DNA of 32,000 bases from an archaeon (GTDB lineage Archaea; Iainarchaeota; Iainarchaeia; Iainarchaeales; CSSED10-239): contig DAOMZT010000001.1 in NCBI GenBank assembly GCA_035400625.1, forward strand, positions 1-32,000, read 5' to 3'. Of this stretch, positions 3,001-20,486 are shown piece after piece; position 1 is the first letter of the stretch; the number at the start of each line of letters is the position of its first letter. Both the position numbers and the translations under genes were made by a program. Under the pieces are notes generated by a model that was not told the origin of the DNA, ran no database searches, and saw only the letters and a program-made list of their open reading frames with translations.

Positions 3001-6000
3001 ATGTCATTTCTGAATTTTCTGGATTGGTGATTATTACTCCACCAAGATTGCTAAATTGTAAACTTAAATCTTCAGAACAATTGTTTCTAATTTGTATTTG
3101 TGCTTTTTCACAACCGAACATTCCGTGTGATGAAAATCCAAAAGAGTTAGGATATCCTTGTGGTGTATTTTCTCTGTAATCTGTATATGGCACTCCTGTT
3201 CCTAATACGCTTTGATAACCAAGCATATTTGATGGATATGTTGAACCTGATAACCAACTTTGATTAATTGATTGTGGAGCCACGCCGGCATATTGATAAT
3301 TATATTGACCCATTAAATAAGGATTGAAATTCATGGTGTTTGTTCCGCCAGCAAATAGACTATAACCATAGCCCATACAATAAGGAACTGTGATTAGAGA
3401 GCTTGGTGTTTCTATACAGCTAACATAATTGTTTAATATTATATTAGGCAAATGCTGTGATGCAATCACATCTACGCCATTTACATTTGGTCTATTTGAT
3501 GAAAATATAATAATTGGATTTGACAATCCGCTTTTTGCAGATTTGTTTGGCCTAAAGATTAATTTTATTGTTGCAGTTTCTTCTGCTACAATTCTGTTTG
3601 CAACTTCTACTTTTTCATCAAGTGATAATTTATGCTCTTTTCCAGAAACCACTACATAATAATCTCCTAGTTTCTTTGTGTTCTTATAGTCTGATTCAAC
3701 ATAAATTCTGCCAACATTTACTGGTTCATCATCTACTGTACAATTATTTTTAATCTTAATATTATATTCTATATCATTTGTATTTTCAACCCTTATTGTT
3801 GTTTCCTGAGGGTTAATTTCTAAGCATTCTACATTATCTACTGAATTACCAAATGTAATTCTTACTTTTATTGGAACTTTAATTATCCATACCTTTGCAA
3901 GAGTCGCCTCACTAACTTTTACTAAAAGATCTCCCTCTATAACTTTTTGTGTCATTAGATCTATTCCTTTCTCTGTTAATCTTGTTGAAACATTTATTTG
4001 TTGATGGATTGTTGGTTCTAAAATTGTGCCTTGTGCATCACTTTTCAGAGATATATAATCAGACCTTATGTTTGTTTCCATGCCTATAATTGTTAATGGC
4101 AAAATAGAATTATTTACCAATACCAAATCAGAATCTTGAGAATAGCCTTTTGAAATATCTAATTGTATATCTAATTTCTCAGGTATTGATTCGATTAGAT
4201 TTTCAGAAACAACTTGCTTTATTGTAACTGTACTATAGCTTTGTTTTTTAACAGTAAATTCCACTTCGTCTTTTATATCTGTTGATGGCAACATTACAGA
4301 ATATGTTCCGTCTCTGTCTGTCTTGCCGTTTGCTACTGTTTTTCCATTTATTCTTATAAAAACTATTGCATCTGTTACTTTGGCACCTGACTCTTCTGTT
4401 ACTCCAACAGTTACTACATTTGGCACAAATGGCACCATTGTTTTTGGAACAACATCAACTATCATTTTCTTTGAAGGCTTAAGATCAAAGTGTATTGTCT
4501 TTGATAATATGATGTCATTATTTGCATAAATATTAAATGTTAATTCATCAGTTATGTCATTAATTACACTTAAATCAATTGAACCATTTACTGTGCCGTT
4601 TGCATTTATATTTCCTAAACTGATATTTGAAAAATCAGTATCATTTATTGGTAAGCCACCACCAGAAGTTATGTTGTATTCGTTTAATACTATTGTTTGA
4701 CCGGTTGGCAAAACAACTAAAATTGCATCTGTTGCTGGCCTTTCAAAACTTAATCTAAAATTAAGTTGATAATCTGTTCCTTCTTTTGCTGTAAACTTAT
4801 CCATTACTTTTTTTTCTGCGCCTGTAGATTTGTCTTTGATTGTAAAAGCATAGCAAATGCCGTTTTCACAACTTGAAGAATCGCCTACAGAAATTATTTT
4901 CTTATTTGCATAAGCATAAAGTGCTTGTCTAGTTGAGGAACTTAAACTTGTTCCTAAAACATCATCTCTTGGAAATCTTAATATCGCGGAACCTTGTTGA
5001 TATTCTGCTCTGTAAAATATAGATTGGTCGGTTATTGCGTTGTCAGTAACTACAATATCTGCATCAATAATATAAGAACCCTCTATTGAGTTATCTAAAA
5101 TAACATTAAACCATTTGGCATCTTTGCGGACTATTGAAGAGGTATCTCTTGACTCTCCACCACAAGGAGTGTAATCAACAGAACCATACATTTTATTTCC
5201 TGCATATTTTATTTTCTTAATATATATTGAATCTTCAGTTACAGAATATGTTCTATTACCACAGGTTTCCCCATCTCCTGTTCTTATATGTGCTAAAACT
5301 TTAGAATATTTTCTATTAACATTTAATAAAAATCTTGCAGTTGCTGATTGACCTGCACTAACAGCTGGCAACTGTTCGCCTTTATCTGAAAAGTAACCAA
5401 CAAACTCTATGCTTGCAGAGCTTGAAGCAAAAGAAGGAATGACTATTGTGTCACTAGTCATGTTTTCTGCTTCTACTGAATATCTTTTTGTAATTATTGG
5501 ATTGCCATCTGTGATTACAGCAAAATACACTTCTTTATCTGCTCTAATAGGTAAAATTGCAAGGCCTGTCTCATTTGTGGTTGTTTGCTTTTCGGTCATT
5601 TCTTTATTTGTGTTTGCATCATATGCCTTTACTATTGCGTTTGAAATTGGAGATCCATCTGAATTTAAAATAGTCAAATTATAAGTACCATAACCAATTG
5701 AAACTAAAATTGGGACAGAAGTTTCTTCTCTTTCCTCTACAACAAAATTATTTGTTTTGCCAGTAAATGGTCCTACAATTGCTTCTGCAAAATAAGTTGA
5801 ATCAGCACTTAGATTAGAAACAATTACTCTGCCTGTTACATCTGTTGTTACAATTTTAACAACTGTGTTATTTAATGCGTCCCATATTTTTACTGTAGCA
5901 TATTCTAATGGATTTAGTTCTGTATCTGTTACACTAATCAACAAACTGGTCTTTGTTTCTGCATTCATGCTTCTTAAAGTAACTTCTGTTGTACTTTCAG

Positions 6001-7225
6001 AAACTGTTGCATTTCTGTTAGTGTAAACAAAATAACCTTCTTTATCAAAAGATAAAACATAGGTTACATTCTCTTTTACTCCAAACTCTACAAGGCCTGT
6101 AGTATCTGTTGTTTTAAGATCAATTGTTGAACTTCCTTTTGATAATTTTACTGAAACACCTTCTAGATATAATCCAGAATCGCTTTTTACTCTTACTTTT
6201 ATAAACCCTACAACATCTTTTTTTACTTCTAATGTTTTTTGATTTATTCCTGTAGTAATTGTTACTGGTGTTTGAACATTATTAATATAATCTAAATCAT
6301 TTATTCCTGCATAAATATTTTTTGGATCAGAAACTAATATTTTATAGCTCTTTGAAACTTGAACTAACTCTGTTGTAAAAATACCATTTGCATTTGTTGG
6401 ACCGCTATCGACCATTATTCCTGTCAAATCATAAATAGAAACTAACATGTCTGGTAGAACAATTCCCTTGTCTTTATCTTTTATTGTTATTGATAATGTA
6501 GCATAGTTTACAGAACTACTAAATATGATTTCTCCGCTTGTGCCTGTTGCTGGAATATTTATTTCATAATCGCTTCTGTTTTTTACAGTTACATCTAAGC
6601 TACCACAATCTGTTGGAATGTCATCTAACGTGTGAGAACCGCCTTTAACAATTACTGTTTTTTCATAGTCTGTTCCAAGACAACTAAACTCTACATTTAA
6701 TTCAGAAGTTATTGCTTCTCCTGATTGTGTTTTAAACAAAATGGTTTTTGTGGTTGAAAATGCACCTTCTTTTAGATGAACTACTTGCGATTTCTTGGTT
6801 GGATCAATTGTGTATTCTTCTCTATCTGAAAATAAATATTTAGTGTCTGCTAATTTTAAGATATAGGTTGAATCTTTACTTAAATCTTTAAAATAGAAAA
6901 AACCTTCAGTATCTGTTTCTAGAGTTTTGGATTGACCGTTTAGTTTTACTTTTAAGATAGTGTTTGCAATTGGGTTGTTTGTTTCATCTAGAAACTGAAC
7001 AGCTGTTCCGTGTGGTCCGCCTGTTATTCCAAAAACTGGGAGTAATAAGAAGATAATCAAAGCAATTATTGCAAGATTAAAAATTATAAAAAGAGGGAAG
7101 GTTGGTATTCCGTTTTTTTCTAGAGGATCAACTAGTTTATATAAATTAATTCCCTTTTCCTCTAGCCTATCAAGCATTGCAAAATATTTATCTTCTAATT
7201 TATAATAGAATTCTTTTAATCCCAT
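1..7225 (-). CDS. Giant membrane-anchored beta-sandwich surface protein, paralog A (N-terminal 2408 codons; 3' end lies beyond window start)
   Basis: Hand translation of the minus strand from ATG at 7225..7223 (codon first bases at 7225, 7222, ...) gives MGLKEFYYKLEDKYFAMLDRLEEKGINLYKLVDPLEKNGIPTFPLFIIFNLAIIALIIFLLLLPVFGITGG... The frame stays open to position 2 (...AQLKFFGKARGIPVEAPGT). Checked base by base at 1..58, 2270..2329, 3299..3421 and 7141..7225. It is missing from the ORF track because there is no stop inside the window; an ATG-to-stop ORF starting at 7225 would otherwise have been listed. Collinear similarity to the 3116-aa product of 9241..18591. Confidence 0.85.
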   Translation of the reverse strand, partial: MGLKEFYYKLEDKYFAMLDRLEEKGINLYKLVDPLEKNGIPTFPLFIIFNLAIIALIIFLLLPVFGITGGPHGTAVQFLDETNNPIANTILKVKLNGQSKTLETDTEGFFYFKDLSKDSTYILKLADTKYLFSDREEYTIDPTKKSQVVHLKEGAFSTTKTILFKTQSGEAITSELNVEFSCLGTDYEKTVIVKGGSHTLDDIPTDCGSLDVTVKNRSDYEINIPATGTSGEIIFSSSVNYATLSITIKDKDKGIVLPDMLVSIYDLTGIMVDSGPTNANGIFTTELVQVSKSYKILVSDPKNIYAGINDLDYINNVQTPVTITTGINQKTLEVKKDVVGFIKVRVKSDSGLYLEGVSVKLSKGSSTIDLKTTDTTGLVEFGVKENVTYVLSFDKEGYFVYTNRNATVSESTTEVTLRSMNAETKTSLLISVTDTELNPLEYATVKIWDALNNTVVKIVTTDVTGRVIVSNLSADSTYFAEAIVGPFTGKTNNFVVEEREETSVPILVSIGYGTYNLTILNSDGSPISNAIVKAYDANTNKEMTEKQTTTNETGLAILPIRADKEVYFAVITDGNPIITKRYSVEAENMTSDTIVIPSFASSSASIEFVGYFSDKGEQLPAVSAGQSATARFLLNVNRKYSKVLAHIRTGDGETCGNRTYSVTEDSIYIKKIKYAGNKMYGSVDYTPCGGESRDTSSIVRKDAKWFNVILDNSIEGSYIIDADIVVTDNAITDQSIFYRAEYQQGSAILRFPRDDVLGTSLSSSTRQALYAYANKKIISVGDSSSCENGICYAFTIKDKSTGAEKKVMDKFTAKEGTDYQLNFRLSFERPATDAILVVLPTGQTIVLNEYNITSGGGLPINDTDFSNISLGNINANGTVNGSIDLSVINDITDELTFNIYANNDIILSKTIHFDLKPSKKMIVDVVPKTMVPFVPNVVTVGVTEESGAKVTDAIVFIRINGKTVANGKTDRDGTYSVMLPSTDIKDEVEFTVKKQSYSTVTIKQVVSENLIESIPEKLDIQLDISKGYSQDSDLVLVNNSILPLTIIGMETNIRSDYISLKSDAQGTILEPTIHQQINVSTRLTEKGIDLMTQKVIEGDLLVKVSEATLAKVWIIKVPIKVRITFGNSVDNVECLEINPQETTIRVENTNDIEYNIKIKNNCTVDDEPVNVGRIYVESDYKNTKKLGDYYVVVSGKEHKLSLDEKVEVANRIVAEETATIKLIFRPNKSAKSGLSNPIIIFSSNRPNVNGVDVIASQHLPNIILNNYVSCIETPSSLITVPYCMGYGYSLFAGGTNTMNFNPYLMGQYNYQYAGVAPQSINQSWLSGSTYPSNMLGYQSVLGTGVPYTDYRENTPQGYPNSFGFSSHGMFGCEKAQIQIRNNCSEDLSLQFSNLGGVIITNPENSEMTLKKGTSGMLGVQGSQVLGQYKISVNAKPDDDAIEDYTYVKDIVVSVNRPVSILPENCISVVPTEFDFSGIDTVERKLTVINSCYDMGYALSGLSVLNVDDLFVGDIQYFYIGDVNKDLKPKKTYRYVDGKTTEIMTIKVRRNPEITEKTFRLDSEDNNSVAKKLTALRKDYYDVGKAINLTALLGITYSNPRLGKDEMEVEITLIDKLQWLSYVDSLVDTSSALEGQTTPGGTTPSDTTPGTQATSLTDYFVGSEALNPGECYDPKGFRKYGFTGEENFKKFGFNRLLFTYNDIDITHNICDYGRVYCDQDQLRIAISKKADLYSSHRTYLLDGVYFLLEGNKIAENPYLLDENPLDKDAIEVIVASQSFNNRDPNSILQALKAVIGRVPTDLRKFTILEAKIGATTTSEPTPANLSSEKIKEYMTILGDNDFAKNVKQDGDVYQTTVDSFLRSETKLEAKINNASTTQQEQAIIAEFLNQYLNTMRLYYGDTISPFIINAKTYGPLNSGTTKTIFSAVQFMSGAWTLTLDPASSVTEIATPGTYSIALKSTANNKQLTYTVQKVNSNLLDYYNNNAGYKANTFFTNPTNAYYFHYFGVPFKIAKTGLSKTTQIIDNYNNGWDVVQDGIILKVPKDNVMISFKDIRPLQVLSSGAYKIEYIANGKYSSKDTSELKNTLFIFQKINESTKGADYQLKTSSNLDMRFNIVPTTLSATKNFTHVYGVLKDITSSSNFTAEETSSVQTMVNGISSEKMCFNFNNGFYLWYNPLRTSFGDTTSVTTSESTTSTSNATAIAIAIATASVGQGSLDSSTISTMTSSQIDDAINKTTKSLSDAQKQLANVNAEIVALEKNNQISSDANKTKLDQLQEQKTTLENLINQLTKGIDNLKAAKSKSSGKGSISSNTSKLTISSGKVQVSAALTALVSPLFTSNVSGIVDVASGNIKLDMSDKKLSGIVNLTSGNLSGEVTVSNAKVVINGNTAQLKFFGKARGIPVEAPGT
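454..556 (-). repeat. Conserved nucleotide island shared with 10425..10527 (encodes coiled-coil motif MTSSQIDDAINKTTKSLSDAQKQLANVNAEIVALEKN)
   Basis: Ungapped hand alignment of 454..556 with 10425..10527 gives 75 of 103 identical bases, including 22 of the first 24. The surrounding paralog sequence is too diverged to align at nucleotide level by eye. Confidence 0.8.
7028..7225 (-). other. N-terminal anchor module of paralog A: conserved cytoplasmic motif plus single TM helix
   Basis: YYK-LEDKYFAMLDRLEEKGINLYKLVDPLEKNGIPTF aligns with AYKWLETKYYSFSDWLTKKGINLNKVNSFLEEKGIPAF of the 3116-aa protein (20 of 37 identical, one gap). It is followed by the hydrophobic stretch PLFIIFNLAIIALIIFLLLLPVF (about 7028..7102). 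Confidence 0.7.
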
Positions 7226-7250
7226 TTTTGAAAACCTTCTTTATTCTAGA

Positions 7251-7382: not shown

Positions 7383-9191
7383 TTATTGCTTTTCTGGGCC
7401 ACAAGCCCTATTATCGCCACCTTTGACTTGACTGTAACATGTCCATCGTTGTATTCCATTTGCTGATGACACTATTGTTGTAGATTCAAAATTATTAGCA
7501 GAAACTGGATTTAAGTAGCCCTTATCTATAACACTCAGATTTGACCAATTATTGTCAGGAGTAAAATAAAACTCACTAAAATCTTCACGTAAACGTATTT
7601 CAATATTAGTGTTTACATCTTTATATTGGTCTTTTATTATATATCTTGGATCTGTTTCTTTAAATTGCAGAATTGTTATTGCATTGTCTATTTCTGAACA
7701 AGTCAATTCTGTCTGTTCCGCTACATTATTTTGTATTGTTATGTTATTTTGTTCATCATACCAACCTAAATTAACTTCCCAGATAGGAGCTGATTTACCT
7801 TCTTTTAAGAATAGACCTAATCCGCCTACAAGTGTTGGCATTTGGTTTATATTATCAAAAACAGTTTGTGTGTAATTATCGTTATAATTACCTGGAACGT
7901 CTGTAAAATAGTTTTTACTTTTTTTTGATTTGGCATTTACCTCAATTTCAGAGATATTAATATCTGGTGCTCCTTGGGTTTGCCCAAGCACTATGTTGCC
8001 TTTCATTATCAGCCCATTATTGTAAGTAATTGTTTGGCCGTGTCTGTTATTTACTAAATTTGCTATAAGAGATTGACTATAAAGCTCTTTAAAGGCATAA
8101 TCAATTTGGTGTTTATCATCATATGTTATTGAAGTATTTGAATTTGGACCAAAATTAACTTGCTGTATTGGAAGTAAACCTTGTGGCACATCACCATGTA
8201 AGGTTTTGGGGATTTCATGACAATATTTGCCAGAGGAACCTACTTTGTTAGGTGTTCTAAAGAAATATTCTCTTGGAAGACAGGTTCCTGGATCACAATA
8301 GCCAAGCCTTGCCTGCTCTAAGGTGTTATGGATTTTTGGGGAGAAGAACCCTGTATTTCCGTTTTCAGGGTCTGCAGGATTTACTGCTCTTTCTGTTTCG
8401 TTGTCTAAAACAATATTTCTTGCTGTTCTTAATGCCTGAAGACCACGCCATGGCATATATATCTTGTAAATCTGCCTACTTAATACTGGCCTTTGTATTA
8501 CTTGGTTACTTTTAGTTCTTAGAACAGTTACTATTGGCAAAAGTTCATAATTCTCATCAGCAAGCTGAGTAGTGTCTAATGTTAAAAAGAAAGAGCCATT
8601 ACAGTTGGTATCATTTTGACCACAATCAACAACATCTGCTCTCTCTCCTCCTGCCTTAAAAACATCAACAACTACACTAACAAATTTATCTTTTGCATCT
8701 TCATTTTCGCTAGCAGATTCAAGGTGACAACAACCAGGATCTCCATATTGACAACCCTCATCACATACTATTGTTGTACCGGCATTTGTTTCTGTTCTTA
8801 TATCATATCCTGGAGGATCCATTTTATATTTTAGATTAAAAAGTATGCCTTGAGCAAAGTATGCGGGAAATGCTCTTTCAAAAAAATTGTCTTTTATAAA
8901 CCATTGAGTAAAATCATCCCAGTTCATATCCATTTGACTTCTTCTTACTTCCATTGGATGTCTAGACATATGTTCTTCCCAATTGGATCTTAAGGTAATT
9001 ATAAATGTATTAAAGGCATCAGCTCTTGCAAGATCAGCCATGGTCATAAGATCTGACATTGCAGATTGATCTTGAATAAGAGAGAGATATGTGTCTTCTG
9101 TGTTAATCATATTAAAAATTAAAGCTAAGGCTACAGATACCAATAACAAAGAGATAAGAGCAGTAAATAATGTAAAGCCTTTTCTATTCAT
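7383..9191 (-). CDS. Large Cys-rich secreted protein with prepilin-type (class III) signal peptide; pilin-like or minor-pilin-like
   Basis: ORF track, 602 aa. The N-terminus MNRKG/FTLFTALISLLLVSVALALIFNMI has basic residues, then Gly, then about 22 hydrophobic residues, which is the prepilin cleavage pattern. Position +5 is Thr rather than Glu. The mature part has 12 Cys in local clusters (CDEGCQYGDPGCC, DCGQNDTNC, CDPGTC, WTC...ACGPEKQ). I recognise no other domain. A 49-nt spacer follows the giant gene stop. Confidence 0.75.
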   Translation of the reverse strand: MNRKGFTLFTALISLLLVSVALALIFNMINTEDTYLSLIQDQSAMSDLMTMADLARADAFNTFIITLRSNWEEHMSRHPMEVRRSQMDMNWDDFTQWFIKDNFFERAFPAYFAQGILFNLKYKMDPPGYDIRTETNAGTTIVCDEGCQYGDPGCCHLESASENEDAKDKFVSVVVDVFKAGGERADVVDCGQNDTNCNGSFFLTLDTTQLADENYELLPIVTVLRTKSNQVIQRPVLSRQIYKIYMPWRGLQALRTARNIVLDNETERAVNPADPENGNTGFFSPKIHNTLEQARLGYCDPGTCLPREYFFRTPNKVGSSGKYCHEIPKTLHGDVPQGLLPIQQVNFGPNSNTSITYDDKHQIDYAFKELYSQSLIANLVNNRHGQTITYNNGLIMKGNIVLGQTQGAPDINISEIEVNAKSKKSKNYFTDVPGNYNDNYTQTVFDNINQMPTLVGGLGLFLKEGKSAPIWEVNLGWYDEQNNITIQNNVAEQTELTCSEIDNAITILQFKETDPRYIIKDQYKDVNTNIEIRLREDFSEFYFTPDNNWSNLSVIDKGYLNPVSANNFESTTIVSSANGIQRWTCYSQVKGGDNRACGPEKQ

Positions 9192-9240: not shown

Positions 9241-12200
9241 TTATGACAAATTATTATTCATTGCAAAATTATCATAAGTTGCATAGCCACTTCTTGGAAC
9301 AACCACGAAAAATATTTTGTTTGTTGCATATGTTGAAAATAAAGGACTTAATTGTCCTTTATCGCCATTTTGCTGTAATATCATGTGTTCGCCATTTTCG
9401 TTTTTGCCAACATATAAAACAACATGAGGTGGTTGGCAATTTTTAAGTTTTTTGCTTGTGCCTTCTATGCCAATTACAACACCAGGCACTAACACATTAT
9501 CTATTGATTCAATATTATCTTTTCCTTTTTGCCAAACAATTCTGTTTCTTGTGCCGTAATTTTGACTTGTGCCTGTGTCATTATCACAAGCATTTCCTGA
9601 ATTGTAGTTTGCACCATATAACTTATTAGAAACTTCTGTAACAAAACTCGCACAATGATGTGGCACCATTGGTCCAACATCCACACACACAGAACCTAAA
9701 CCTTTCTCACTAAATGTACAACGTGCATAATCTTGTAATTTGTTTTCATGTTGGGTGTACATTCTCATTTGTAGTTCTTCAAGACTTGTGGAAACTTGGG
9801 TTGCATCTGTTTCGATTTTCTCTTCTATTATTTCTGACCAATCTTGAGATTGCACTTGAGGGGTATTTGCTTGTAATAGTTCTTCTTGGTGCTCAGAGGT
9901 TTGTATTTCTTTAATTTCTTTATTATCTGTATAATATATTGCTACATCATTACTTATTGCAGGTATTTCTTTTTCAATAATTACATCGTATTTATTTGCT
10001 TGTTTTATTACTGTTACTTTATACCACACATTCTTTTCAAATTCAGTGACTGGAATTCCAAGATATACTAGATTTGCCAATTGTCCATTCTCGTTTGATT
10101 GACGATTTAAATAATCTTGACCAGCTTGGTTTGATACTGCAACAATAATCATATCAATTGCAAACTTTCCAGCTCCTTTTAAGAATTTCTGAAGTTTAGT
10201 TGGTAATTTTAAAGATTTAATAGAGTCAACAGCATCATCCATACCTTTTACAATATCATCTGAAATGTCTACCATACCTGATCCACTAGCGCCCGCTTTA
10301 ACTTTTCTTAAATCATCAGCAGCATTAGTTAACTTCTGCCCTGCATCTTCTAAACCCAATTTTTGTTTATATAATGTCTCTAGTCTTTTCCTTTTAATTG
10401 CAGGAATTGCTATTCTGTTTTTTTCAAGAGCTACGATTTCTGCATTTATTTTTGTTAATTGCTTTCCAGCACTTGCTGCTGATTTTGTAGCTCTTGCTAT
10501 TGCATCATCTAATTGGTTTGTTGTCATTTTTGTTATTTCTGAGCTTTTGACCATGCCTGTTAAAGCAGAATTTGCAGAAGCAATATCTGTTTTGATTGTT
10601 GAAACATTTCTAATCTTGCCTTCTAAAGCACTATCAATAACAACATTTCCTGCACTATCTGGAGTTAATCCTCCTAGTCCTTTGCCTATATCATCTATTT
10701 GTGATTTTGCACTATTTAATGCGCTTTCATTTCTAACAAGTTCATCCCATTGTAGTTTTAATGCAGGATCTGTTGGAGGAACATTACCAAATGACTCCAT
10801 TTTAATTGTTGCGATTTCATCTAATTGAGATTGAATATTTGTACTAGTGCTTGATATTGATTTTTGCAAAGCTTGACTATCCGCAAGAGTCATTACTCTT
10901 GGACCACCACCTGAGCCAGAACTTATGTGCTTTAGTACTTTATCTATGTTGTCTAATTGTTTGTTTATGCTTCCAATTCCAGCGGAATCAATCCTTGTTG
11001 AAATACCACTGACATCTACTTGTCCGCCAACAATTGGTGCTCCATTAACTTGTAATATTAAATCATCGACCTCTGTTAAACGCGAAGATATTTGCTTTTC
11101 TTGATAAGTTAATATTCTTGATCTTTGTGTTTCTGCTACATTTTTTGGAGTACCAATTGCCTTTAGTTCGCTTTGAACTTCTCCTAGGCGTGTTTTTAAT
11201 TGATTACTTACTTCTGTTGCATCACTAATAAATCTTGTACGTTCAGCTTGTGTTATTGTTGTTGTAGTTATTGATGATCCCGAAGTTCTTAAGAAATCAT
11301 CAACATCTGCTTTAAAGCTTACTCCATTAGGTTTAAACTTACCATTAAGCGCTTTCTCATCAGGATAAGTTCTAGGATTTGCCCAAAACCCATCTTTTGC
11401 AGCTGCATTGAATCTTCCTGTACCGTAACTTGTGTTGTTTGCAATTATTTCACCAAATCTTTGTTGTTCTGCTTTTGTTAGTTTATAAAATCCTGATGTT
11501 AAATCTGAATTAGGTATACTTGCTTTAGTTGCACCTGTACTTAATGGATCAATACCAATCTTACGCAAAATTCTATTTAATTCCGTTTGTTCAGCTCTTG
11601 TTTTTGCATAGAACCAATATTGTGCATTTGGGTGCCTTGAAGTATATTCTATATATTTTATCAATTTTGCTTCGCTTTTTATAGGGGCAAAAGGAGTGCC
11701 TGTTGTTATTGTTTTTGGAGTTACATGGACTAATTTTTTGTCTAAAAACATAGTTGGTGTGCCACTGCCACCACCTGTTATGTTTATTGTATCTGGCAAA
11801 TCATCCATTATTCCCATTAATGGAGTTTCAAATTCTTCTATACTCATAGTATAATCAAATGGATCTACTTGACCTATGCCTTGTCTTGTAAGATCATGAA
11901 TACCAACTATGGTTTCAGCAGCCCCTGCATTCTCTGATAAATCTCCACTATAACCATCTTTGGCTAATTGCTGAGCCAAAGCATCTGCTTCTGCTTTACC
12001 ACTGCCTCCACCCATTATGGCATTTGCAACAGCACCCAACGCATTACCTACAAAGCCAAAGATTTTTTCAACAACCCTTGCAAGGTCTCCTACAACAGGT
12101 ATCTTATGAATAACATCCATAACTTTTTCTGTAATTCCTGTTTCATTACCATACATCGTTACTGTTGGAAGACCACAACCAATACCACAATTCCAAATCA

Positions 12201-15200
12201 AATCTTTCAATAATTTTGCATGACCAAAAATAGGAATAACTTTAGAAATTATATTAACACCTGATGTTAATGTTGCACAGCTTAACATACAACCAGTAAA
12301 ATATGTACCAGCTCTTTTTAACGCTCTTTTGTTTCTTGCGCTTTTCTCTGATTGGGTTTCTTTAAATTCACATTCTTTTGGCTTTACAAACATTGTGGCC
12401 TTGCCACCTAAACTATCATAATATTTCTTTAAGGCATCACAATATTCTTCTTTGTCATTTTTATTATATTCTTTATTCCATGAAACAAAAGCATATATTG
12501 ACTGCTCATTACTTTCTGCATCTCCTGAACTTAATTTACCAGATATGTTGTCTCCAATTCCTATTAGTTGCATTGGGGTTATACCATAATTTAATAAAGT
12601 AATATTAACATCTGCTTTTCTTTCTGAATTTAACTTTCCTATTTTGAATTTACTCTCTGCAGTTATTTTTACAGTCTTATCAGACCAATGTGCAACATCA
12701 CCAATGTCGCCTAAGAAACAAACATTAAAATCAGTTGGCTTGTCTTTTTCAAGAACTAAAGATAATTCATTAGTATAGTCTTTTCCCTGATAAATTAATT
12801 TAGTTCTTACCCCGATTACCTCTTCTGCTTTTATTTTCACTTGTTCATCAAGTGCAGAATTTGCAGTAAGGACAACACATTTCTCTAAAGGTGCTAATTG
12901 CAATTTATTGTTCTGTGCCTTTAAAGACAATGCACCATAATCTGCTGCTTCAAAAGATAATATCAACATATAGTTTTTATCTTTGGAGATACAGATATCT
13001 GCGGGAGTTCCATTGATTATGTCTTTTACATTTTCAGAAACTTGCTTAATAAATTCTTCTGAATATTTTGATTCCTCTCCTTCTTTGTTTATTGAAAATG
13101 TATCATTAACTATTAAATTTATCTTTTCTGGACGAGGGCTTGTAACTGCAACTGGATCATTAAAATATAGTTTTGCGATAGCATTTTCATTCTCTTTAAT
13201 TGTTCCAATTGAAACATCTAGTTGACTGAAATTTTTGACATTGTCTGTCCTTAACTGGAATCTTTCATCGCTATCAAACACTTGTTTTGCAATTGTTTTG
13301 CCAAACTTTTCATCACCACTAATCAATGTTAACCAAGTATTGCCCATATTTGATTTTTTGAAAAAAGTAGTGTCTTTTGGCAGGTACATTCTTACATTTT
13401 CTATACTTTTTGCACAAGGACCCGTCTTATTATAATCTATAGTTACATAGAAATATGCTTTTTCTGGTGCCAGAGTTTTTTGATCCTTTGTTGCAATCCT
13501 GCCATCTATTGTAATTTTATATCTTCCACAACCCTGCATTTTATTATCTACATGTATGATATTACCAATCATCTGCAAACCGCCAGAAGTTGGACCGACA
13601 TATTCTCTTATTTCATAGTTTTTAATGGTTGGATATTTTGCTACTTCTTTGGTGTTTTTTAAAACAATATCTAAGGTTCTTTGAGATAGTGAATCGTTCT
13701 GTAGATAGATAGGAATATTCTTAAATGGCTTTAATTGATCTGACTTTAACAAATCAGAAATCGCACAACCATTCTGTTGTGCAGTTGCAATAGAACAACT
13801 TGTTTGTGCAAGTTCATTATTTAGTTGTCTTGAAGCATCTATGACTACTTTATGTAATTCTTGTATTTTTTCTAATATAAGTTCTGCTGCACCCTCTGCA
13901 TCACAATAGCCATCATCTTTACAATCAGTAACAATCTTTGGCATTGGAATGTCCATTTTTTCATCAGTATCACAGATTTTTACAGCTATATCCTCGTCAA
14001 TTCTTTCTAAATCTGCTACTGTGTCCTCATCAGGTGCTTCTACTTCTGTTGAAATCCAAATAATTTCTGAAGTTACCATGCTTAATGCCGTTCCATTTAC
14101 TGGATAACCAATTAATGTAAATCTATTCTCTGTTCTAGGAGTAAAATACCTGGTTGGTTTTACTTTCAAATAGAAAGCAACTGTTTGACCAACACCAATA
14201 AACGGAACAGGAGTTGCAGGAACTAAAGCAACACCTGTGCCCTCGCCAAACACCATAGTAAAGTCATTAGGTGACTTGTATGGGTGTGGATCATAATCTA
14301 TGTATGCAATAGGCTCTGCACATTGGTTAGTGACTCTAATATACATTGGTTTTTCTTCTCCTATTTTTGTGTGGAAAGTAATTTTTTTCTGATCAACTTT
14401 TAAACAACTAGCTGATGAGATTCTAAAATCAACAGTAAATTTTGCAGTTATTGGGTCCTTTGTACCAGGGGAAATTGCAGAAACTTTATAATACATAGTT
14501 GCTGTTGTTGCATTACTTACTTTGCCTTCATAGATAACACTTACTTGTTTTGTTTGACCAGGCTTTATTTCCTCAAAAGTTAATGGCTCAATCTTATCTT
14601 GAATATTAGAAACATATTTCTCCTCTAGCCTTGATATCTGTATGTCTTTTAATGGATATTTTCCTGTATTTGTTATAGAAAAAATAGTTTTATTTGAGGC
14701 CATTATCTCTTCATTATATTGGCTCATTGAAACAACTGAAACTGGAGGAGTTATTTTTATAGTTTTTGAATAATCAACCAAATCAATATTTAATTTTGTG
14801 TTTGGTAAAGCATAATATGCATTTCTCCAAGCAATCTCAAAGGCATAGCTTTTTGTTGTTTTTCTGGCTTTGTTGTTTTTAATAGTTATTGTGTAATCTG
14901 TTATCTCTTCGTTTGGTTCTATTGTTACAGAAGGGAGAATAACTTCTAGGTTCTCATCTTTCTTTATTACCGTGCCTTTTGCTTTTAATAGCTCTGGAGT
15001 TATAGTTATTGCTTTTTTACAATTGTTGACTAATGTTGCGGTTATCTCATTTTCAGAACCCTCACTAATGCCAACATAACTATAGATCACAAGAGGTTTT
15101 ATATCTAAACAATTTTCTTGCACTTGCCCCTTATAAATATTAATTTCAATATCTTTTGCTACTTGCTTGTTTCCGACAAAACCAAATATTGTTAAAACAT

Positions 15201-18200
15201 ATTTTGCTGTTGTAAACTTAATTTTTGGATCAATTACAGAAACAACTTCTATTTCTGAAGGGGTTGTTGGGTTAAGTGCTACTGGCAAATGAGCTTCTAT
15301 AGTTAATTCAGCAACTTCATCAATTGGTGTAATCTTGTAGGTCAAATCTGTAATCTTTGCATTGCCTTTATTCACTAACTTTATAATCTCTATTTCTTGA
15401 CTAATTTCATTTCCAAAGTTTATTGAGATGCTATCAGGGCCAGAGATAATGCCTGTATCGGCAATCATTAGTTGTCTTGTGTATGGTGCATAGCCTGGAG
15501 CAGTAACTTCAAGATTTGGTCTTGTGCTAGAAAAATTTTGATTAATTATGTATTTCCCTGCCTTTGCTTTTTTAGTACTTGAAATTAGATCCCCAAACTC
15601 ATCTTCTAATTTTACTAATGCGTTGTTTATTGGGCTTTTGTTGTCTGCATCTTTTACTTCTACTGTTATTGGGGTGTTGTATGGCAAAACATCTAAAACA
15701 TTTACTTCTAAGTTTCTTTTATTCTTTATTTCAAAAGTTAATCTTTTTTCTGTAACTTTGGAGTTAAAGGTGGATCTTACATCAATGTGAGTTACGCCTG
15801 TGTTTTTTGCATTAAATAATAAATATTGTTTTTTATAAATTCCTGATTGTAATAAAACAGCCATAGAACTTAATTTTGTTTCTTGAGAATCCAATTTTGA
15901 ACTTGGAAACAAATCTGTGTCTTGATAGTTTATTAGGCCAATAATAGGATGACTTGCATCAGTTTCAGTATCAATTGCTAATTCTCCTGATTGAGTGGTA
16001 TAATAATTTAATTCTAATAAATACATCTCATCAACAGTTCCAAAAAAAGTTTCATTAGAATAGTCAAAGCCACCTTTGTCTAAAAACCTATATTCTACAC
16101 AAAGGTTGTCTGAACATTCAGCAGGAGTTTCAAGGACCTTGAATACTTTTTCCTTTGTTTCTGCATATAGGCCTTGTCTTGAAGAGATGTTTCTTGCGGT
16201 TCCTAATGTTGAGTCTTCTGGATCTCTATGGATTTTTCCTTCACTATCTTCACACCATGCCCTGTACTTTAAAAGCAAATCGCCAATCTCTGTTGCTTTA
16301 ACCTTTAACATTATTTGTTTGTTTGTTACTGACTCAGATGGCCAATATAACTCTAGCCATTTGTTTAAAATATTAGGAGAACCAACATTATCATAATCAA
16401 TGGACTGTTGTCCTTCACGATAGGTTGTAGAATATTTGAAATTTGTAGTGTCTGCCTTAAAGCCAGTTATACCATAAGTCATGTTTTCAGAATCATCTTC
16501 AGAATCATCTCCTGCTCTAAAATGCACTCCACATTTTTTTACATCTATTGGCAATTGCAAATCAAATACCAAATAATAATCATTGTCTTTACTTAATATG
16601 CTTGTTGATTTGTTTTGTAAATCCCTAATCTCTAAAAAAGAAACTATTGGATTAAGATCCTCAATCATTGGTTTTAAGCTTACTGATAAATTCTCCCCAT
16701 CCCCTACTACTCCAGAAGCAACAGTAACATTTCCTTCACCATCTATATATTCCACAATCAAATCCTTGTAGCCTTTGGTTAAAAATTTTGCTGGATTTTC
16801 AGAATCAATATAACCTTCATAAAGAATCTCTCCTGTTTTTGTTTTTACTGTTACATAACCATCAGTTACTGGGTTACCATAAATGTCTTTTAATTGCAAG
16901 GTTACTTCTTTTGATGCATCATTTATTATTAAGATTACCTTGTTATCTTTAAATTGATCAATAGTGATTTCTTGAGAAGCATTTGAATCTCCAGCAATGC
17001 CTACCACCTTATAGGTTTCATCTTTTTGTGTAAAGACATAAGCATAACCTGTTATGTCTACCTGTAATGGACCTAAGCCTATCGGCACATATTTGCCATT
17101 TAATAGTTTATAAATTAAGACATTTGCTGAAGAAAGTGGCATGTTTGCCCCATCATAAACATATATTGAAAGTTTGTAGGTTTCTGCAGAACCAAACTTA
17201 ACAAGCCTTACTTCTAAGTCATTACTAGTATCTATATTCGCAAAATATTGTGAACAAAGATAATCCTCTTTACATGCAGTAACAACATAATCTTTATTTT
17301 TATCAAGGCCTGTAAATGTAACTTCGCCATCAAGTAAGGTTGTTTTTTCAGAAATTAAATTCCCATTAAGATTATATAAAGAAACATCAGCATCACTTAC
17401 TGGGCCAGCCACACTTTCTACAACCATAACTCTTAAATCTGAACTGCCTTTTTTTAAGGTTGCTGTAAAAGTGTCTTCGCTTTTTTGTAATCTAAATGTT
17501 TTGTCCTCTTGGTCACTATCGTATGTTCTGTAATCTTTTTTTGTTACAACAAATCTTATTACAGAACCTGCTTTTTCTGTAAATGTGAATTTGCCTAGTT
17601 GGGTTATGCCATATGCTATTTTTTCGCCAGCAACATTATAGACTGTAACTTCACAATCATCTAATAAATCTCCAGTGTCTGATACTGCCAAGATTGTGCC
17701 CCTTGCATCAAGTCCTTCTAATTGAGCTGAACCCAAATCAAACTGTAATTCTATAGGTATTATTTCATCATTACTTGATATAGTTATAGATTGAGAAACT
17801 GTTTGGTAGCCATCAGCCTCAACAACTAATGAGATAGACTTACCTAATGGTGCATCTGTAAAACTAATTAAGTTTGAGCTTCCTGGTGTTGCTATTTGCT
17901 CTTCTGATTTTCCACTGACTGTATAGTTTAAAGTCGCTTTGTATTTTGAAATGGCTTTTTTTGTTTCTGAATCTGTTACTGTTAATTTGAAATTACCACG
18001 AGTCACATTTTCTGAAAATTTTATTATTATTGGTTCTCCTCTTGTAAACAGGTGACTTTTATCAAAATCTGCAAATCCTGATTTTGTGGCTATAATTGCA
18101 TAATCTGCTCCTGACTTAAGAGCAAGCCTTGCCTTATGACCATCACTTATTGTCCCACTAAATTTTGTCTTGTTTTTTAAATCATAAATCTTAACATCTA

Positions 18201-18591
18201 CATCTGATAATTTGTTTCCTGAAAAATCAGTTAGTGAAAACTCCACTGTTGTTTTTGATGCAAAGTTAATTATTAAGAGAATTATAATTGCTAAAATGAC
18301 AATTGTAAGACTAGCCACAACCACAAAAGCAGGAATTCCTTTTTCTTCTAAAAAGCTATTAACTTTATTTAGGTTTATTCCTTTTTTTGTTAGCCAATCA
18401 GAGAAAGAATAATATTTAGTTTCTAACCATTTATAGGCCTTGCCAAAAATGTTGTTTTCTTTTTGCTTGCCTATGTTTTCTTCTGAGAAATCTTCATCTA
18501 TTTCTGAATAATCATCAATTTCAGTATCATCCTCAAAATCTATTTCTTCTTTGGCTTTAGAGCCTCTAGGTTTTGATTTAGTTCTTGCCAT
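9241..18591 (-). CDS. Giant membrane-anchored surface protein, paralog B (3116 aa) with C-terminal NlpC/P60-CHAP-like domain
   Basis: ORF track. Architecture read from the translation, N- to C-terminus. (1) Basic then acidic cytoplasmic tail (res 1-50). (2) Conserved motif plus TM (res ~50-111). (3) Six ~85-aa beta-sandwich repeats with a carboxypeptidase-regulatory-like pattern (res ~115-640). (4) Many further Ig-like modules with recurring [IV]xNx[GC] strands (LVNKGNAKI, LVNNCKKAI, ITNTGKYPL, VTNQCAEPI). (5) A Cys-rich hydrophobic/Gly-zipper patch (res ~2091-2199). (6) A Ser/Ala/Gln-rich coiled-coil region (res ~2430-2800). (7) A papain-fold C-terminal domain. Confidence 0.95.
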   Translation of the reverse strand: MARTKSKPRGSKAKEEIDFEDDTEIDDYSEIDEDFSEENIGKQKENNIFGKAYKWLETKYYSFSDWLTKKGINLNKVNSFLEEKGIPAFVVVASLTIVILAIIILLIINFASKTTVEFSLTDFSGNKLSDVDVKIYDLKNKTKFSGTISDGHKARLALKSGADYAIIATKSGFADFDKSHLFTRGEPIIIKFSENVTRGNFKLTVTDSETKKAISKYKATLNYTVSGKSEEQIATPGSSNLISFTDAPLGKSISLVVEADGYQTVSQSITISSNDEIIPIELQFDLGSAQLEGLDARGTILAVSDTGDLLDDCEVTVYNVAGEKIAYGITQLGKFTFTEKAGSVIRFVVTKKDYRTYDSDQEDKTFRLQKSEDTFTATLKKGSSDLRVMVVESVAGPVSDADVSLYNLNGNLISEKTTLLDGEVTFTGLDKNKDYVVTACKEDYLCSQYFANIDTSNDLEVRLVKFGSAETYKLSIYVYDGANMPLSSANVLIYKLLNGKYVPIGLGPLQVDITGYAYVFTQKDETYKVVGIAGDSNASQEITIDQFKDNKVILIINDASKEVTLQLKDIYGNPVTDGYVTVKTKTGEILYEGYIDSENPAKFLTKGYKDLIVEYIDGEGNVTVASGVVGDGENLSVSLKPMIEDLNPIVSFLEIRDLQNKSTSILSKDNDYYLVFDLQLPIDVKKCGVHFRAGDDSEDDSENMTYGITGFKADTTNFKYSTTYREGQQSIDYDNVGSPNILNKWLELYWPSESVTNKQIMLKVKATEIGDLLLKYRAWCEDSEGKIHRDPEDSTLGTARNISSRQGLYAETKEKVFKVLETPAECSDNLCVEYRFLDKGGFDYSNETFFGTVDEMYLLELNYYTTQSGELAIDTETDASHPIIGLINYQDTDLFPSSKLDSQETKLSSMAVLLQSGIYKKQYLLFNAKNTGVTHIDVRSTFNSKVTEKRLTFEIKNKRNLEVNVLDVLPYNTPITVEVKDADNKSPINNALVKLEDEFGDLISSTKKAKAGKYIINQNFSSTRPNLEVTAPGYAPYTRQLMIADTGIISGPDSISINFGNEISQEIEIIKLVNKGNAKITDLTYKITPIDEVAELTIEAHLPVALNPTTPSEIEVVSVIDPKIKFTTAKYVLTIFGFVGNKQVAKDIEINIYKGQVQENCLDIKPLVIYSYVGISEGSENEITATLVNNCKKAITITPELLKAKGTVIKKDENLEVILPSVTIEPNEEITDYTITIKNNKARKTTKSYAFEIAWRNAYYALPNTKLNIDLVDYSKTIKITPPVSVVSMSQYNEEIMASNKTIFSITNTGKYPLKDIQISRLEEKYVSNIQDKIEPLTFEEIKPGQTKQVSVIYEGKVSNATTATMYYKVSAISPGTKDPITAKFTVDFRISSASCLKVDQKKITFHTKIGEEKPMYIRVTNQCAEPIAYIDYDPHPYKSPNDFTMVFGEGTGVALVPATPVPFIGVGQTVAFYLKVKPTRYFTPRTENRFTLIGYPVNGTALSMVTSEIIWISTEVEAPDEDTVADLERIDEDIAVKICDTDEKMDIPMPKIVTDCKDDGYCDAEGAAELILEKIQELHKVVIDASRQLNNELAQTSCSIATAQQNGCAISDLLKSDQLKPFKNIPIYLQNDSLSQRTLDIVLKNTKEVAKYPTIKNYEIREYVGPTSGGLQMIGNIIHVDNKMQGCGRYKITIDGRIATKDQKTLAPEKAYFYVTIDYNKTGPCAKSIENVRMYLPKDTTFFKKSNMGNTWLTLISGDEKFGKTIAKQVFDSDERFQLRTDNVKNFSQLDVSIGTIKENENAIAKLYFNDPVAVTSPRPEKINLIVNDTFSINKEGEESKYSEEFIKQVSENVKDIINGTPADICISKDKNYMLILSFEAADYGALSLKAQNNKLQLAPLEKCVVLTANSALDEQVKIKAEEVIGVRTKLIYQGKDYTNELSLVLEKDKPTDFNVCFLGDIGDVAHWSDKTVKITAESKFKIGKLNSERKADVNITLLNYGITPMQLIGIGDNISGKLSSGDAESNEQSIYAFVSWNKEYNKNDKEEYCDALKKYYDSLGGKATMFVKPKECEFKETQSEKSARNKRALKRAGTYFTGCMLSCATLTSGVNIISKVIPIFGHAKLLKDLIWNCGIGCGLPTVTMYGNETGITEKVMDVIHKIPVVGDLARVVEKIFGFVGNALGAVANAIMGGGSGKAEADALAQQLAKDGYSGDLSENAGAAETIVGIHDLTRQGIGQVDPFDYTMSIEEFETPLMGIMDDLPDTINITGGGSGTPTMFLDKKLVHVTPKTITTGTPFAPIKSEAKLIKYIEYTSRHPNAQYWFYAKTRAEQTELNRILRKIGIDPLSTGATKASIPNSDLTSGFYKLTKAEQQRFGEIIANNTSYGTGRFNAAAKDGFWANPRTYPDEKALNGKFKPNGVSFKADVDDFLRTSGSSITTTTITQAERTRFISDATEVSNQLKTRLGEVQSELKAIGTPKNVAETQRSRILTYQEKQISSRLTEVDDLILQVNGAPIVGGQVDVSGISTRIDSAGIGSINKQLDNIDKVLKHISSGSGGGPRVMTLADSQALQKSISSTSTNIQSQLDEIATIKMESFGNVPPTDPALKLQWDELVRNESALNSAKSQIDDIGKGLGGLTPDSAGNVVIDSALEGKIRNVSTIKTDIASANSALTGMVKSSEITKMTTNQLDDAIARATKSAASAGKQLTKINAEIVALEKNRIAIPAIKRKRLETLYKQKLGLEDAGQKLTNAADDLRKVKAGASGSGMVDISDDIVKGMDDAVDSIKSLKLPTKLQKFLKGAGKFAIDMIIVAVSNQAGQDYLNRQSNENGQLANLVYLGIPVTEFEKNVWYKVTVIKQANKYDVIIEKEIPAISNDVAIYYTDNKEIKEIQTSEHQEELLQANTPQVQSQDWSEIIEEKIETDATQVSTSLEELQMRMYTQHENKLQDYARCTFSEKGLGSVCVDVGPMVPHHCASFVTEVSNKLYGANYNSGNACDNDTGTSQNYGTRNRIVWQKGKDNIESIDNVLVPGVVIGIEGTSKKLKNCQPPHVVLYVGKNENGEHMILQQNGDKGQLSPLFSTYATNKIFFVVVPRSGYATYDNFAMNNNLS
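9244..9720 (-). other. C-terminal papain-fold NlpC/P60-CHAP-like hydrolase domain of giant B
   Basis: GPMVPHHCASFVTEVSNKLYG (Cys codon 9652..9654) lies upstream of LVPGVVIGIEGTSKKLKNCQPPHVVLYVGKNENGEHMILQQNG (His codon 9424..9426), with the His 76 residues after the Cys. Cys-then-His order, the xCxxFV context, the pGxxv...HVxxYxG strand, and a polar His/Gln 13-18 residues later fit the NlpC/P60-CHAP pattern. Confidence 0.6.
10425..10527 (-). repeat. Conserved nucleotide island shared with 454..556 (encodes MTTNQLDDAIARATKSAASAGKQLTKINAEIVALEKN)
   Basis: See 454..556: 75 of 103 bases identical, ungapped. Confidence 0.8.
11995..12320 (-). other. Internal hydrophobic, Cys- and Gly-rich patch of giant B (possible membrane-inserting hairpin)
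   Basis: RAGTYFTGCMLSCATLTSGVNIISKVIPIFGHAKLLKDLIWNCGIGCGLPTV...VVEKIFGFVGNALGAVANAIMGGGSG contains two hydrophobic segments about 20 residues long. The second is a GxxxG/A-type glycine zipper. There are five Cys within about 50 residues. Confidence 0.4.
16669..18249 (-). repeat. Six tandem, diverged ~85-aa prealbumin-fold (carboxypeptidase-regulatory-like) repeats (protein level)
   Basis: Repeats begin at TVEFSLTDFSGNKLSDVDVKIY, GNFKLTVTDSETKKAISKYKATL, RGTILAVSDTGDLLDDCEVTVY, DLRVMVVESVAGPVSDADVSLY, YKLSIYVYDGANMPLSSANVLIY and VTLQLKDIYGNPVTDGYVTVK. Each is followed by a ...G.f.f......Y.v.a.k.GY... pattern. No nucleotide-level repetition is visible. Confidence 0.6.
18259..18444 (-). other. 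N-terminal anchor module of giant B: conserved cytoplasmic motif plus single TM helix
   Basis: GKAYKWLETKYYSFSDWLTKKGINLNKVNSFLEEKGIPAF is followed by VVVASLTIVILAIIILLIINFA (about 18259..18330). Homologous to 7028..7225. Confidence 0.7.
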
Positions 18592-18781: not shown

Positions 18782-19339
18782 TTAAAAAGAAACCTTGATG
18801 TTCTTTTTTTCTTCAGCTGTTGCTTCTAGGAAAGTTTCTTCTTTGAAATTAAACATCTTAGCAAAGACGCTGTTCGGGAAAACTTGTAGCTTGTTATTGT
18901 AGTCCATTATTGTGTCGTTGTAATATTGTCTTGCATATGCTATTTTGTTTTCAATACCTGATAACTCCTCTTGAAGCATTAAGAAATTCTGGCTTGCTTT
19001 AAGGTCTGGATAGTTTTCAACAACAACATTTAAAAGACCGCCAATTGCCTTAGACAACTGATCGTTTGTTTTCATTGCTGCTTTTATGTCTTTTGTTTGC
19101 ATAGCTTGATTTCTTAATTCTGTAATTTTTGATAATGTGCCTGCTTCGTGCTTTGCATAGCCTTTAACTGTCTCAACAAGGTTTGGTACAAGATCATATC
19201 TTTTCTTTAGCTGAACATCAATCTGGCTCCAGCCGTTTTTTACCTTGTTTCTCATAACAACTAGGCTATTGTAAATGAATAAAGCCATTAGCAAAAATAC
19301 ACCAAGAATCACCAGAATAACTATTAGTGCTATTGACAT
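18782..19339 (-). CDS. lemA: LemA family membrane protein
   Basis: 185 aa with an N-terminal TM helix, then YNSLVVMRNKVKNGWSQIDVQLKKRYDLVPNLVETVKGYAKHE, the characteristic LemA motif. Confidence 0.9.
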   Translation of the reverse strand: MSIALIVILVILGVFLLMALFIYNSLVVMRNKVKNGWSQIDVQLKKRYDLVPNLVETVKGYAKHEAGTLSKITELRNQAMQTKDIKAAMKTNDQLSKAIGGLLNVVVENYPDLKASQNFLMLQEELSGIENKIAYARQYYNDTIMDYNNKLQVFPNSVFAKMFNFKEETFLEATAEEKKNIKVSF

Positions 19340-19413
19340 TTTTGAATCACCATTTTATTGTTATAACTAGATAATATATAAGATGTTAATGTTTATAAAG
19401 AAATTGTTTGAAA

Positions 19414-20476: not shown

Positions 20477-20486
20477 TTTCTCACAT

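Follow-up and report, generated by a model that had tools for sequence, protein, structure and literature searches.

A divergent NlpC/P60-type domain at the distal end of a predicted giant surface protein in DPANN archaea

About 5% of archaeal genomes, prominently those of Nanoarchaeota, encode modular peptidoglycan hydrolases, and for two of these enzymes the killing of a bacterium has been demonstrated (Strock et al. 2025, PMC12352652). The survey that revealed them needed both a recognizable Pfam catalytic domain and a wall-binding domain (PMC12352652). Murein-degrading enzymes have also been reported in metagenome-assembled genomes (MAGs) of DPANN archaea (PMC10936187), a group in which giant surface proteins rich in immunoglobulin-like (Ig) domains are a known theme (PMC10266531). 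This work deals with a protein encoded in a stretch of 32,000 nucleotides from an archaeon of the Iainarchaeota (GenBank assembly GCA_035400625.1, contig DAOMZT010000001.1, positions 1 to 32,000), which is called the window below and has a G+C content of ~32%. The protein, giant protein 1, is the product of an open reading frame (ORF) of 3116 amino acids (aa) at 9241..18591, identified from the ORF list and its translation; this and all other window coordinates refer to the minus strand unless stated otherwise. Its C-terminal domain, modeled as aa 2944-3116 (9244..9762), had been read in an earlier note on this DNA as a papain-fold hydrolase of the NlpC/P60 or CHAP kind. The domain belongs to a divergent new family inside the NlpC/P60 superfamily, distinct in the strict sense from PF00877, CHAP and LRAT. 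This unannotated family has so far been seen only in MAGs of DPANN-type archaea; the domain studied here is part of a giant protein of unusual architecture, encoded in a conserved module of three genes.

The enzymes of the archaeal survey are likewise archaeal, secreted or exposed, and drawn from a murein-hydrolase superfamily, with DPANN archaea prominent among their carriers (PMC12352652). They are however small, secreted and of demonstrated activity, whereas the window protein, a putative enzyme, has no recognized Pfam catalytic or wall-binding domain. Comparable architectures are found in the Tn916-type and Clostridioides difficile CTn Orf16/17 two-domain wall hydrolases and in the tail or tape-measure lysins of phages, where a papain-like wall-cutting domain also ends an anchored or structural protein and serves to breach a wall locally. 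These are bacterial or phage proteins of a few hundred to ~2000 aa acting on the murein of the producer or of the infected cell, in contrast to the archaeal surface protein of ~3000 aa described here, whose conserved domain belongs to another, divergent family. On the side of the giant proteins, the SPEARE proteins of Nanohaloarchaeota (PMC10266531) also have huge membrane-associated, Ig-rich ectodomains for which a role in partner-cell contact has been proposed. They reach 6000-9400 aa, part of which resembles a VirB4/TraG ATPase, and the protease domain claimed for them has been disputed (PMC10266531). No sequence relationship was found between them and giant protein 1, the tip hydrolase of which is supported by several tests. 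A literature search on DPANN archaea combined with NlpC/P60 found no paper.

The nearest described enzymes are the NlpC/P60 endopeptidases (PF00877, MEROPS family C40), such as MepS/Spr of Escherichia coli and LytE of Bacillus subtilis, which are extracellular, as the window protein is predicted to be, and which also stand among the best structural matches of the domain. They display the same canonical order, with the Cys on a helix, the His on a strand and the third residue on the next strand. In the window protein, the predicted nucleophile is Cys2980 (9652..9654), the first residue of the core helix, which lies in HHCASFV and aligns with the Cys of the DCSGF motif of PF00877. The predicted general base is His3056 (9424..9426), the first residue of a beta-strand, which lies in PPHVVLYVGKNENGEHMILQQ and aligns with the His of SHVGIY. 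The predicted third member of the triad is Gln3073 (9373..9375), located on the neighboring strand 17 residues after the His and aligned with the third catalytic His of PF00877 (miH). The order Cys-then-His and the spacing of 76 residues announced in the earlier note are exact, as established from the translation of 9241..18591. The Cys always comes first in the family, and its distance to the His ranges from 65 to 81 residues, which is longer than in C40 enzymes and includes an inserted loop. The hairpin is also longer, the third residue being at +17 in the window protein and at +12 in the PF00877 domain of an ortholog, P0006, discussed below. Further differences from C40 are the Gln in place of His at the third position, additional Cys pairs, and an archaeal host that is not known to contain murein.

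On its own, a spacing of 76 residues between a Cys and a His would carry no meaning; here it is more than a chance occurrence because the two residues are conserved throughout the family and stand in register with PF00877. Indeed, the conservation on which the earlier note had made its proposal depend is observed: the His is kept in 31 of the 31 sequences covering the site and is invariant in the family alignments A3 and A4, and the Cys is kept in every sequence covering its site, being missing in P0011 and P0012, which are N-terminally truncated or frameshifted. Both residues persist down to 23-30% identity to the window protein, while most other positions vary. The third position is Gln in the clade of the window protein, in P0006 and in one small clade, His in most other members and Ser in one clade; all three are documented as third residue in papain-like enzymes, NlpC/P60 itself using His (PMC10318531). 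Over 171 codons, the ratio of nonsynonymous to synonymous substitution rates (dN/dS) relative to the closest genome copy (locus L002) is 0.35, and the domain is, on this codon comparison, under purifying selection.

The Cys-rich globular core begins at Cys2958, the first base of whose codon is position 9720, the upper limit of the interval given in the earlier note. Cys2958 and Cys2969 (C-x10-C, 9685..9720) probably form a disulfide loop before the core helix, and Cys3002 (9586..9588) and Cys3052 (9436..9438) a second disulfide spanning 9436..9588, both pairs being proposed on the basis of co-occurrence. Cys2958 and Cys2969 are both present in the giant clade and in the small clade of P0015/P0016 type, and both absent in the small clade characterized by GNYCTMYA. 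Cys3002 and Cys3052 are found in most members of the giant clade, and P0010 and all small homologs have other residues instead (Trp; Tyr/Pro). This joint gain and loss of Cys pairs between clades suggests disulfides and an extracellular location.

Strict membership of PF00877 or MEROPS C40 is not obtained, since the PF00877 hidden Markov model (HMM) gives no match at E<=1 in 24 family members; the same HMM detects the extra domain of P0006 with an E-value of 1.5e-23, which provides a positive control. Profile-profile comparison gives a different picture. With hhalign, A3 aligns with 81 PF00877-annotated proteins at a probability of 93.6% (P 2.1e-7, score 47.2), the corresponding null of 100 column shuffles giving 11.8 +/- 2.3 with a maximum of 20.3, and A4 aligns with the same 81 sequences at 88.2% (P 3e-6). 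With an independent five-sequence NlpC/P60 profile, made of four PDB chains and the extra domain of P0006, A3 reaches 71% (P 3.7e-5, score 34); the shuffle null is 11.6 +/- 2.2 in this case and none of 200 shuffles attains the score. Both profile alignments place HCASF on DCSGF, PPHVVLYVG on SHVGIYxG and ILQ on the third-residue motif miH, so that Cys, His and Gln coincide with the three catalytic positions (C, H and H) of PF00877. The 'GD' motif typical of the NlpC/P60, CHAP and amidase enzymes of cluster II is located on strand beta1, and an Arg on beta5 is the pairing partner of its Asp (PMC10318531); PGVVIGI in the window protein aligns with PGDLIF of PF00877, and the Gly is nearly invariant in the family (P93-G94 in A3 and A4). 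Judged from these alignments, the domain qualifies as a remote homolog of the NlpC/P60 superfamily (Pfam clan CL0125, cluster II of PMC10318531).

A first AlphaFold model, built from three close homologs, had a mean predicted local distance difference test (pLDDT) score of 33 and was discarded as unusable. The AlphaFold2 model obtained from a 24-sequence alignment reached a pLDDT of 79.1 and a predicted template-modeling (TM) score of 0.79. In this model, helix 37-49 begins at Cys37 (C2980), strand 113-120 begins at His113 (H3056), and Gln130 (Q3073) lies within the next strand (126-132). In papain-like enzymes the Cys is always at the N-terminus of a helix (PMC10318531), and a helix starting at the Cys, a strand starting at the His and a Gln on the following strand make up the papain-like arrangement in the modeled domain. 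The best Foldseek match in the PDB is MepS/Spr (8xud_K, probability 1.00, E 4.6e-3, TM 0.46/0.54). The other top matches are 7v6u, LytE (8i2d), 2hbw, 2evr, 5t1q and 4f88, all of them, like MepS, NlpC/P60 or CHAP enzymes, and the next dozen after MepS include LytE, two cyanobacterial gamma-D-Glu-diamino-acid endopeptidases (2hbw/2evr), a Staphylococcus aureus CHAP amidase and PlyC. Among viral models (BFVD), the top matches are CHAP, NlpC/P60 and C51 lysins. Although the match scores are moderate, the model supports a papain-like alpha+beta fold akin to that of solved members of the NlpC/P60 superfamily. With the profile-profile result, the structural matches and the conservation of Cys and His all pointing the same way, the NlpC/P60 fold assignment of the earlier note is considered highly probable.

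The earlier note had also left room for CHAP and LRAT-type kinship, and here only its NlpC/P60 part is supported, C40 being nearest. CHAP enzymes (PF05257), such as the CHAP domain of LysK, PlyC and the autolysins of S. aureus, share superfamily and fold with the domain, and 5t1q, 4f88 and viral CHAP lysins are among the Foldseek matches, CHAP structures standing lower in the lists. By eye, a GNA after the Cys helix and an 'ILEQNW'-like sequence at His+17 in LysK CHAP resemble GNAC and ILQQNG of the window protein. CHAP membership is not claimed, given the lack of a Pfam match and an hhalign score of 9.4, which is at null level, against a three-sequence CHAP profile (LysK, 8h1i, 6ist), this profile being thin (effective number of sequences 1.9) and thus weak evidence. 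The defining trait of LRAT/HRASLS (PF04970) and YaeF/YiiX (PF05708, C92) is a circular permutation that brings the catalytic Cys close to the C-terminus, after the His (PMC3142127). Membership of these families can be ruled out, the Cys preceding the His by 65-81 residues in every member of the family described here.

The description of an anchored protein carrying the domain at its distal end also holds, as the translated ORF contains one hydrophobic helix and no other. This helix, aa ~87-110 (18262..18333), has a mean hydropathy of 3.45 over 19 residues and is the sole segment of giant protein 1 exceeding 1.5 in a Kyte-Doolittle scan. Giant protein 1 is predicted to be a type-II membrane protein, with ~86 aa in the cytoplasm, one helix in the membrane and ~3000 aa presumably outside the cell.

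Detection of the family depends on the search method. A word-indexed (k-mer) single-sequence search of 5.8 billion proteins returned only two close relatives and an exhaustive HMM search of 1.84 billion representatives returned 13 proteins, the family being visible only with HMM and profile queries. The 13 matches are the C-termini of the giants P0003 (2978 aa), P0006 (3182 aa) and P0010 (2855 aa), fragments, and four small stand-alone proteins. The profile query added ~20 further small proteins of 170-260 aa, each with an N-terminal membrane helix or signal peptide; the small homologs are labeled 'archaeon' or 'Candidatus Diapherotrites archaeon'. About 35 proteins were found in all, every labeled member coming from an archaeal MAG. 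A GTDB scan with one genome per species likewise detected the domain in archaeal MAGs only, including Candidatus Iainarchaeum sp., which the NCBI places in the kingdom Nanobdellati, its name for the DPANN group. No close bacterial relative of the domain appeared in the k-mer, HMM and profile searches. The domain is kept in every related genome examined, and the family at the tip is the same in all seven carriers compared (the window, L002, L003, L004, L005, P0003 and P0006).

One MAG, SRP067234_co1_315 (L005 and L006), encodes both the giant P0010 and a small paralog with a signal peptide (P0015/P0016), and the presence of a giant and a small version in one genome gives the family two distinct modes of deployment within one cell. 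In L006, the small paralog sits between tRNA synthetase and Kae1 genes; the 658-aa protein encoded downstream of it is unrelated to the 602-aa protein encoded next to giant protein 1 in the window, and no conserved partner is found there. The closest metagenomic relative of the window is L001, an ENA contig (ERZ2647914) with a coverage of 1.08x, which is syntenic and in which the giant gene is split into many short ORFs. These breaks are most likely frameshift errors of a very low-coverage assembly and not pseudogenization.

The locus of the ortholog P0006 (loci L008-L010) has the same order as the window (phosphoenolpyruvate (PEP) synthase, LMWPc, LemA, giant, a 544-aa protein, giant 2), which makes it a positional ortholog. 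Directly behind the divergent domain, at its very C-terminal end, P0006 carries a canonical PF00877 domain (aa 3065-3151), the one used above as positive control. The nearest PDB entries to this extra domain are Tn916-type cell-wall hydrolases, and those of its relatives that bear an organism label are all bacterial, with up to ~50% identity, which suggests its acquisition from bacteria. The two tandem papain-like domains at the tip of P0006 recall bifunctional lysins. The proposal that the target is the wall of another cell is strengthened by the bacterial-type PF00877 domain added in P0006, and this tandem tip is the best argument, albeit indirect, for murein as the target.

The interpretation favored here, with a probability of about 0.5, is that of a tethered extracellular Cys-His-Gln amidase or peptidase of the NlpC/P60 superfamily cutting the peptide part of a neighbor's wall. 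Residues ~2958-3116 would form an extracellular, catalytically competent cysteine amidase/peptidase with the canonical, non-permuted order. Cys2980, placed at the N-terminal end of the core helix, would attack an amide carbonyl with its thiol, His3056 on the adjacent strand would act as general base, and Gln3073, replaced by His in many relatives, would orient His3056. Two probable disulfides would stiffen the domain outside the cell. The domain would be held at the far end of an ectodomain of ~3000 residues, made of beta-sandwich modules and a helical region, with one N-terminal helix in the membrane. The substrate would be the peptide part of the wall polymer of another cell, bacterial murein in the first place, and the protein would be a tethered lysin helping the archaeon to attach to, open or feed on a neighboring cell. 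Activity, substrate and biological role are all read from sequence and model, and the neighbor's murein is a best guess. More tentatively, the locus may encode a contact apparatus of Iainarchaeota-type DPANN archaea, composed of two tethered proteins of ~2500-3100 residues and a pilin-like protein, in which an ancient archaeal NlpC/P60 tip would open the murein or pseudomurein of the partner; this wider proposal is possible rather than probable.

Several observations weigh against a wall-cutting enzyme of the NlpC/P60 superfamily. The Pfam profiles named in the earlier note are not matched: hmmscan of the last 239 or 173 aa finds no NLPC_P60, CHAP, LRAT or other credible family, even at E<=10, and NCBIfam and PHROGs profiles, as well as phmmer and hmmsearch against PDB sequences, give no meaningful match for the domain. 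The structural model rests on only 24 sequences, and the Foldseek scores are modest, none reaching 1e-3 or below and TM values being about 0.4-0.56, even if the lists are mutually consistent. The Asp of the 'GD' motif is replaced by Val, Asn, Gln, His, Ser, Ala, Leu or Met (PGVVIGI, PGNVIGL, EGSILGI), and the N-terminal Y.WGG substrate lobe of PF00877 proteins is absent; as a consequence of these two differences, specificity is not transferable from PF00877 enzymes. The Pfam scan finds no cell-wall-binding module (LysM, SH3b, PG_binding) in giant protein 1, the PF00877 fusion is limited to a single ortholog lineage, and the presence of small membrane-anchored paralogs among housekeeping genes is just as compatible with a function at the surface of the cell itself. 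The missing curated match, the lost Asp and the modest structural scores could be accommodated by a non-catalytic binding or adhesion module in which the Cys and His are fortuitous or vestigial. This is nevertheless very remote in view of the retention of both residues in clades only 23-30% identical, where most other positions are variable, the three triad positions in register with PF00877, the profile scores far outside the shuffle nulls and the dN/dS of 0.35. A lipid-directed activity is hardly more plausible. An acyltransferase or phospholipase of LRAT/HRASLS or YaeF type, taking or modifying the membrane lipids of a neighbor, would belong to the same superfamily, and weak Peptidase_C92 matches were recorded in 3 of the 24 members (E 0.0075-0.01). 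These matches are however below the cut-off and restricted to the shared His hairpin, both the profile and the structure comparisons lead to canonical C40 peptidases, and the Cys stands before the His in every member, which makes such an activity distinctly improbable.

If the domain is an enzyme of this type, it may still have another target. It could trim or mature proteins of the cell's own envelope, its pilus-like fibers or the giants themselves, for example in release or remodeling at division. In favor of this are the age of the family, which is archaeal, without close bacterial relatives and hence not a recent bacterial import, the ~20 small paralogs held right at the membrane by an N-terminal helix or signal peptide, one of them lying between tRNA synthetase and Kae1 genes, the pilin-like protein always encoded directly after the giant, and the lack of a detected wall-binding domain in giant protein 1. 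Some 3000 residues between anchor and domain would however be an odd design for a self-directed enzyme, and the bacterial-type murein endopeptidase domain added at the tip of P0006 has no known substrate in an archaeal envelope; such an own-surface action is therefore considered rather unlikely, if worth keeping in mind. The same evidence of fold and catalysis would also suit a scavenger releasing amino acids and amino sugars from wall fragments, gamma-glutamyl peptides or isopeptide-linked peptides of dead cells and detritus, with no specific partner. Dependence on external building blocks is a widely described feature of DPANN genomes (PMC10936187), and small anchored and giant versions coexist in one genome (L005, L006). 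Yet a three-gene module with two giant tethered proteins would be an expensive solution, enzymes serving this purpose tend to be soluble or to lie near the membrane, and no linked transporter lies within the window, so that this explanation appears improbable.

Outside the catalytic domain, the Pfam content of giant protein 1 is restricted to Ig-like or beta-sandwich families. A CarboxypepD_reg-like beta-sandwich forms part of the stalk at aa 975-1042 (15466..15669; PF13620, E 1.3e-15, 58 bits for a cut-off of 32.3), and this match is significant, while bMG3, SdrD_B and Invasin_D3 remain below their cut-offs. The cytoplasmic N-terminal module, aa ~45-86 (18334..18459), is kept in orthologs and is common to giant protein 2, with 51% identity over 37 aa in BLASTP; Pfam gives no match for this module in either giant. 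In giant protein 2, the module is encoded at 7088..7225, and in both giants it shows the pattern Y..LE.KY...L..KGI.L.K....LE[EK][KN]GIP.F directly before the membrane helix. Together with the hydrophobic segment behind it, the sequence 'KG|IP.F' of the giants is reminiscent of a site for prepilin peptidase, the leader of which would be unusually long (45-86 aa). A coiled-coil-like stretch is also shared by giant protein 1 (aa 2693-2761, ~10309..10515) and giant protein 2 (aa 2233-2301), with 46% identity and the pattern QLDDAI..TKS...A.KQL..NAEIVALEKN, the remainder of the two giants being barely alignable. A Cys/Gly-rich hydrophobic stretch at aa ~2095-2200 of giant protein 1 (~11992..12309), YFTGCMLSCATLTSGVNIISKVIPIFG...GFVGNALGAVANAIMGGG, is below the threshold for a membrane helix and might be a membrane-interacting segment.

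The gene of giant protein 1 is followed by that of a pilin-like protein of ~545-605 aa and then by that of giant protein 2, an order kept in the window, L002, L003, L004, L005 and L008-L010. In the window, the pilin-like protein has 602 aa and is encoded directly downstream of giant protein 1 at 7383..9191, as identified from its ORF and from a prepilin/class-III-like N-terminus, MNRKGFTLFTALISLLLVS. It belongs to no Pfam family, and its weak matches to the ComGF and ComGE pilins are limited to the N-terminus. The corresponding genes are located at 10578..12368 in L002, 1816..3525 in L003, 1604..3427 in L004, 10536..12353 in L005 and 14558..16192 in L008. The window protein and the L005 copy in the same position share 38% identity, and the N-terminus of these proteins is near-invariant (xxKG|FTLFTALxSLLLxS). 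Proteins of this type may be pilin-like adaptors of the apparatus. Giant protein 2, of at least 2408 aa, is cut by the edge of the window (1..7225, in an open frame 2..7240), with CarboxypepD_reg and MG4 matches. Like giant protein 1, it has the N-terminal module and membrane helix as well as beta-sandwich domains, and its C-terminal part is Ser/Thr-rich and repetitive. Its complete orthologs in L002, L003 and L005 have 2202-2563 aa; no enzyme domain was detected in giant protein 2, and the C-termini of these three orthologs show no catalytic Pfam match or obvious motif. A polymorphic toxin or contact-dependent effector of CdiA or Rhs type was also considered for giant protein 1 and ruled out, as the tip family is constant in the seven carriers and the downstream gene encodes the conserved pilin-like protein and not a small variable immunity protein.

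The other neighbors, at 18782..26115 on the minus strand and 26758..28647 on the plus strand, are ordinary. They encode LemA, a low-molecular-weight phosphotyrosine phosphatase, PEP synthase, a DUF2207 membrane protein with a poly-Gly tail, a phosphoribosyltransferase, a flavodoxin/4Fe-4S protein, a DUF7768 protein and an XPD/Rad3 helicase with an HBB domain, the last of which fits an archaeon. No tRNA or Rfam element was found in the window.

For most DPANN archaea, to our knowledge, neither the partners nor the means of contact have been established. The domain described here stands at the exposed end of one of the largest proteins of the cell, and its family escapes surveys of archaeal wall hydrolases that depend on Pfam domains (PMC12352652). 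Whichever its target, a profile made from alignment A4 would allow the family to be annotated. If the enzyme acts on the cell's own surface, it would be among the first cysteine peptidases for which a part in processing the DPANN envelope has been proposed. If it cuts murein, it would represent a new specificity class in the NlpC/P60 superfamily and a new source of lysin-type enzymes, and it would give a handle on whom these archaea touch, bacteria rather than archaea. If the contact apparatus proves real, it would constitute a cross-domain tethered lysin, deployed by an archaeon on a bacterium, and would suggest that a DPANN lineage has bacteria as its hosts or prey.

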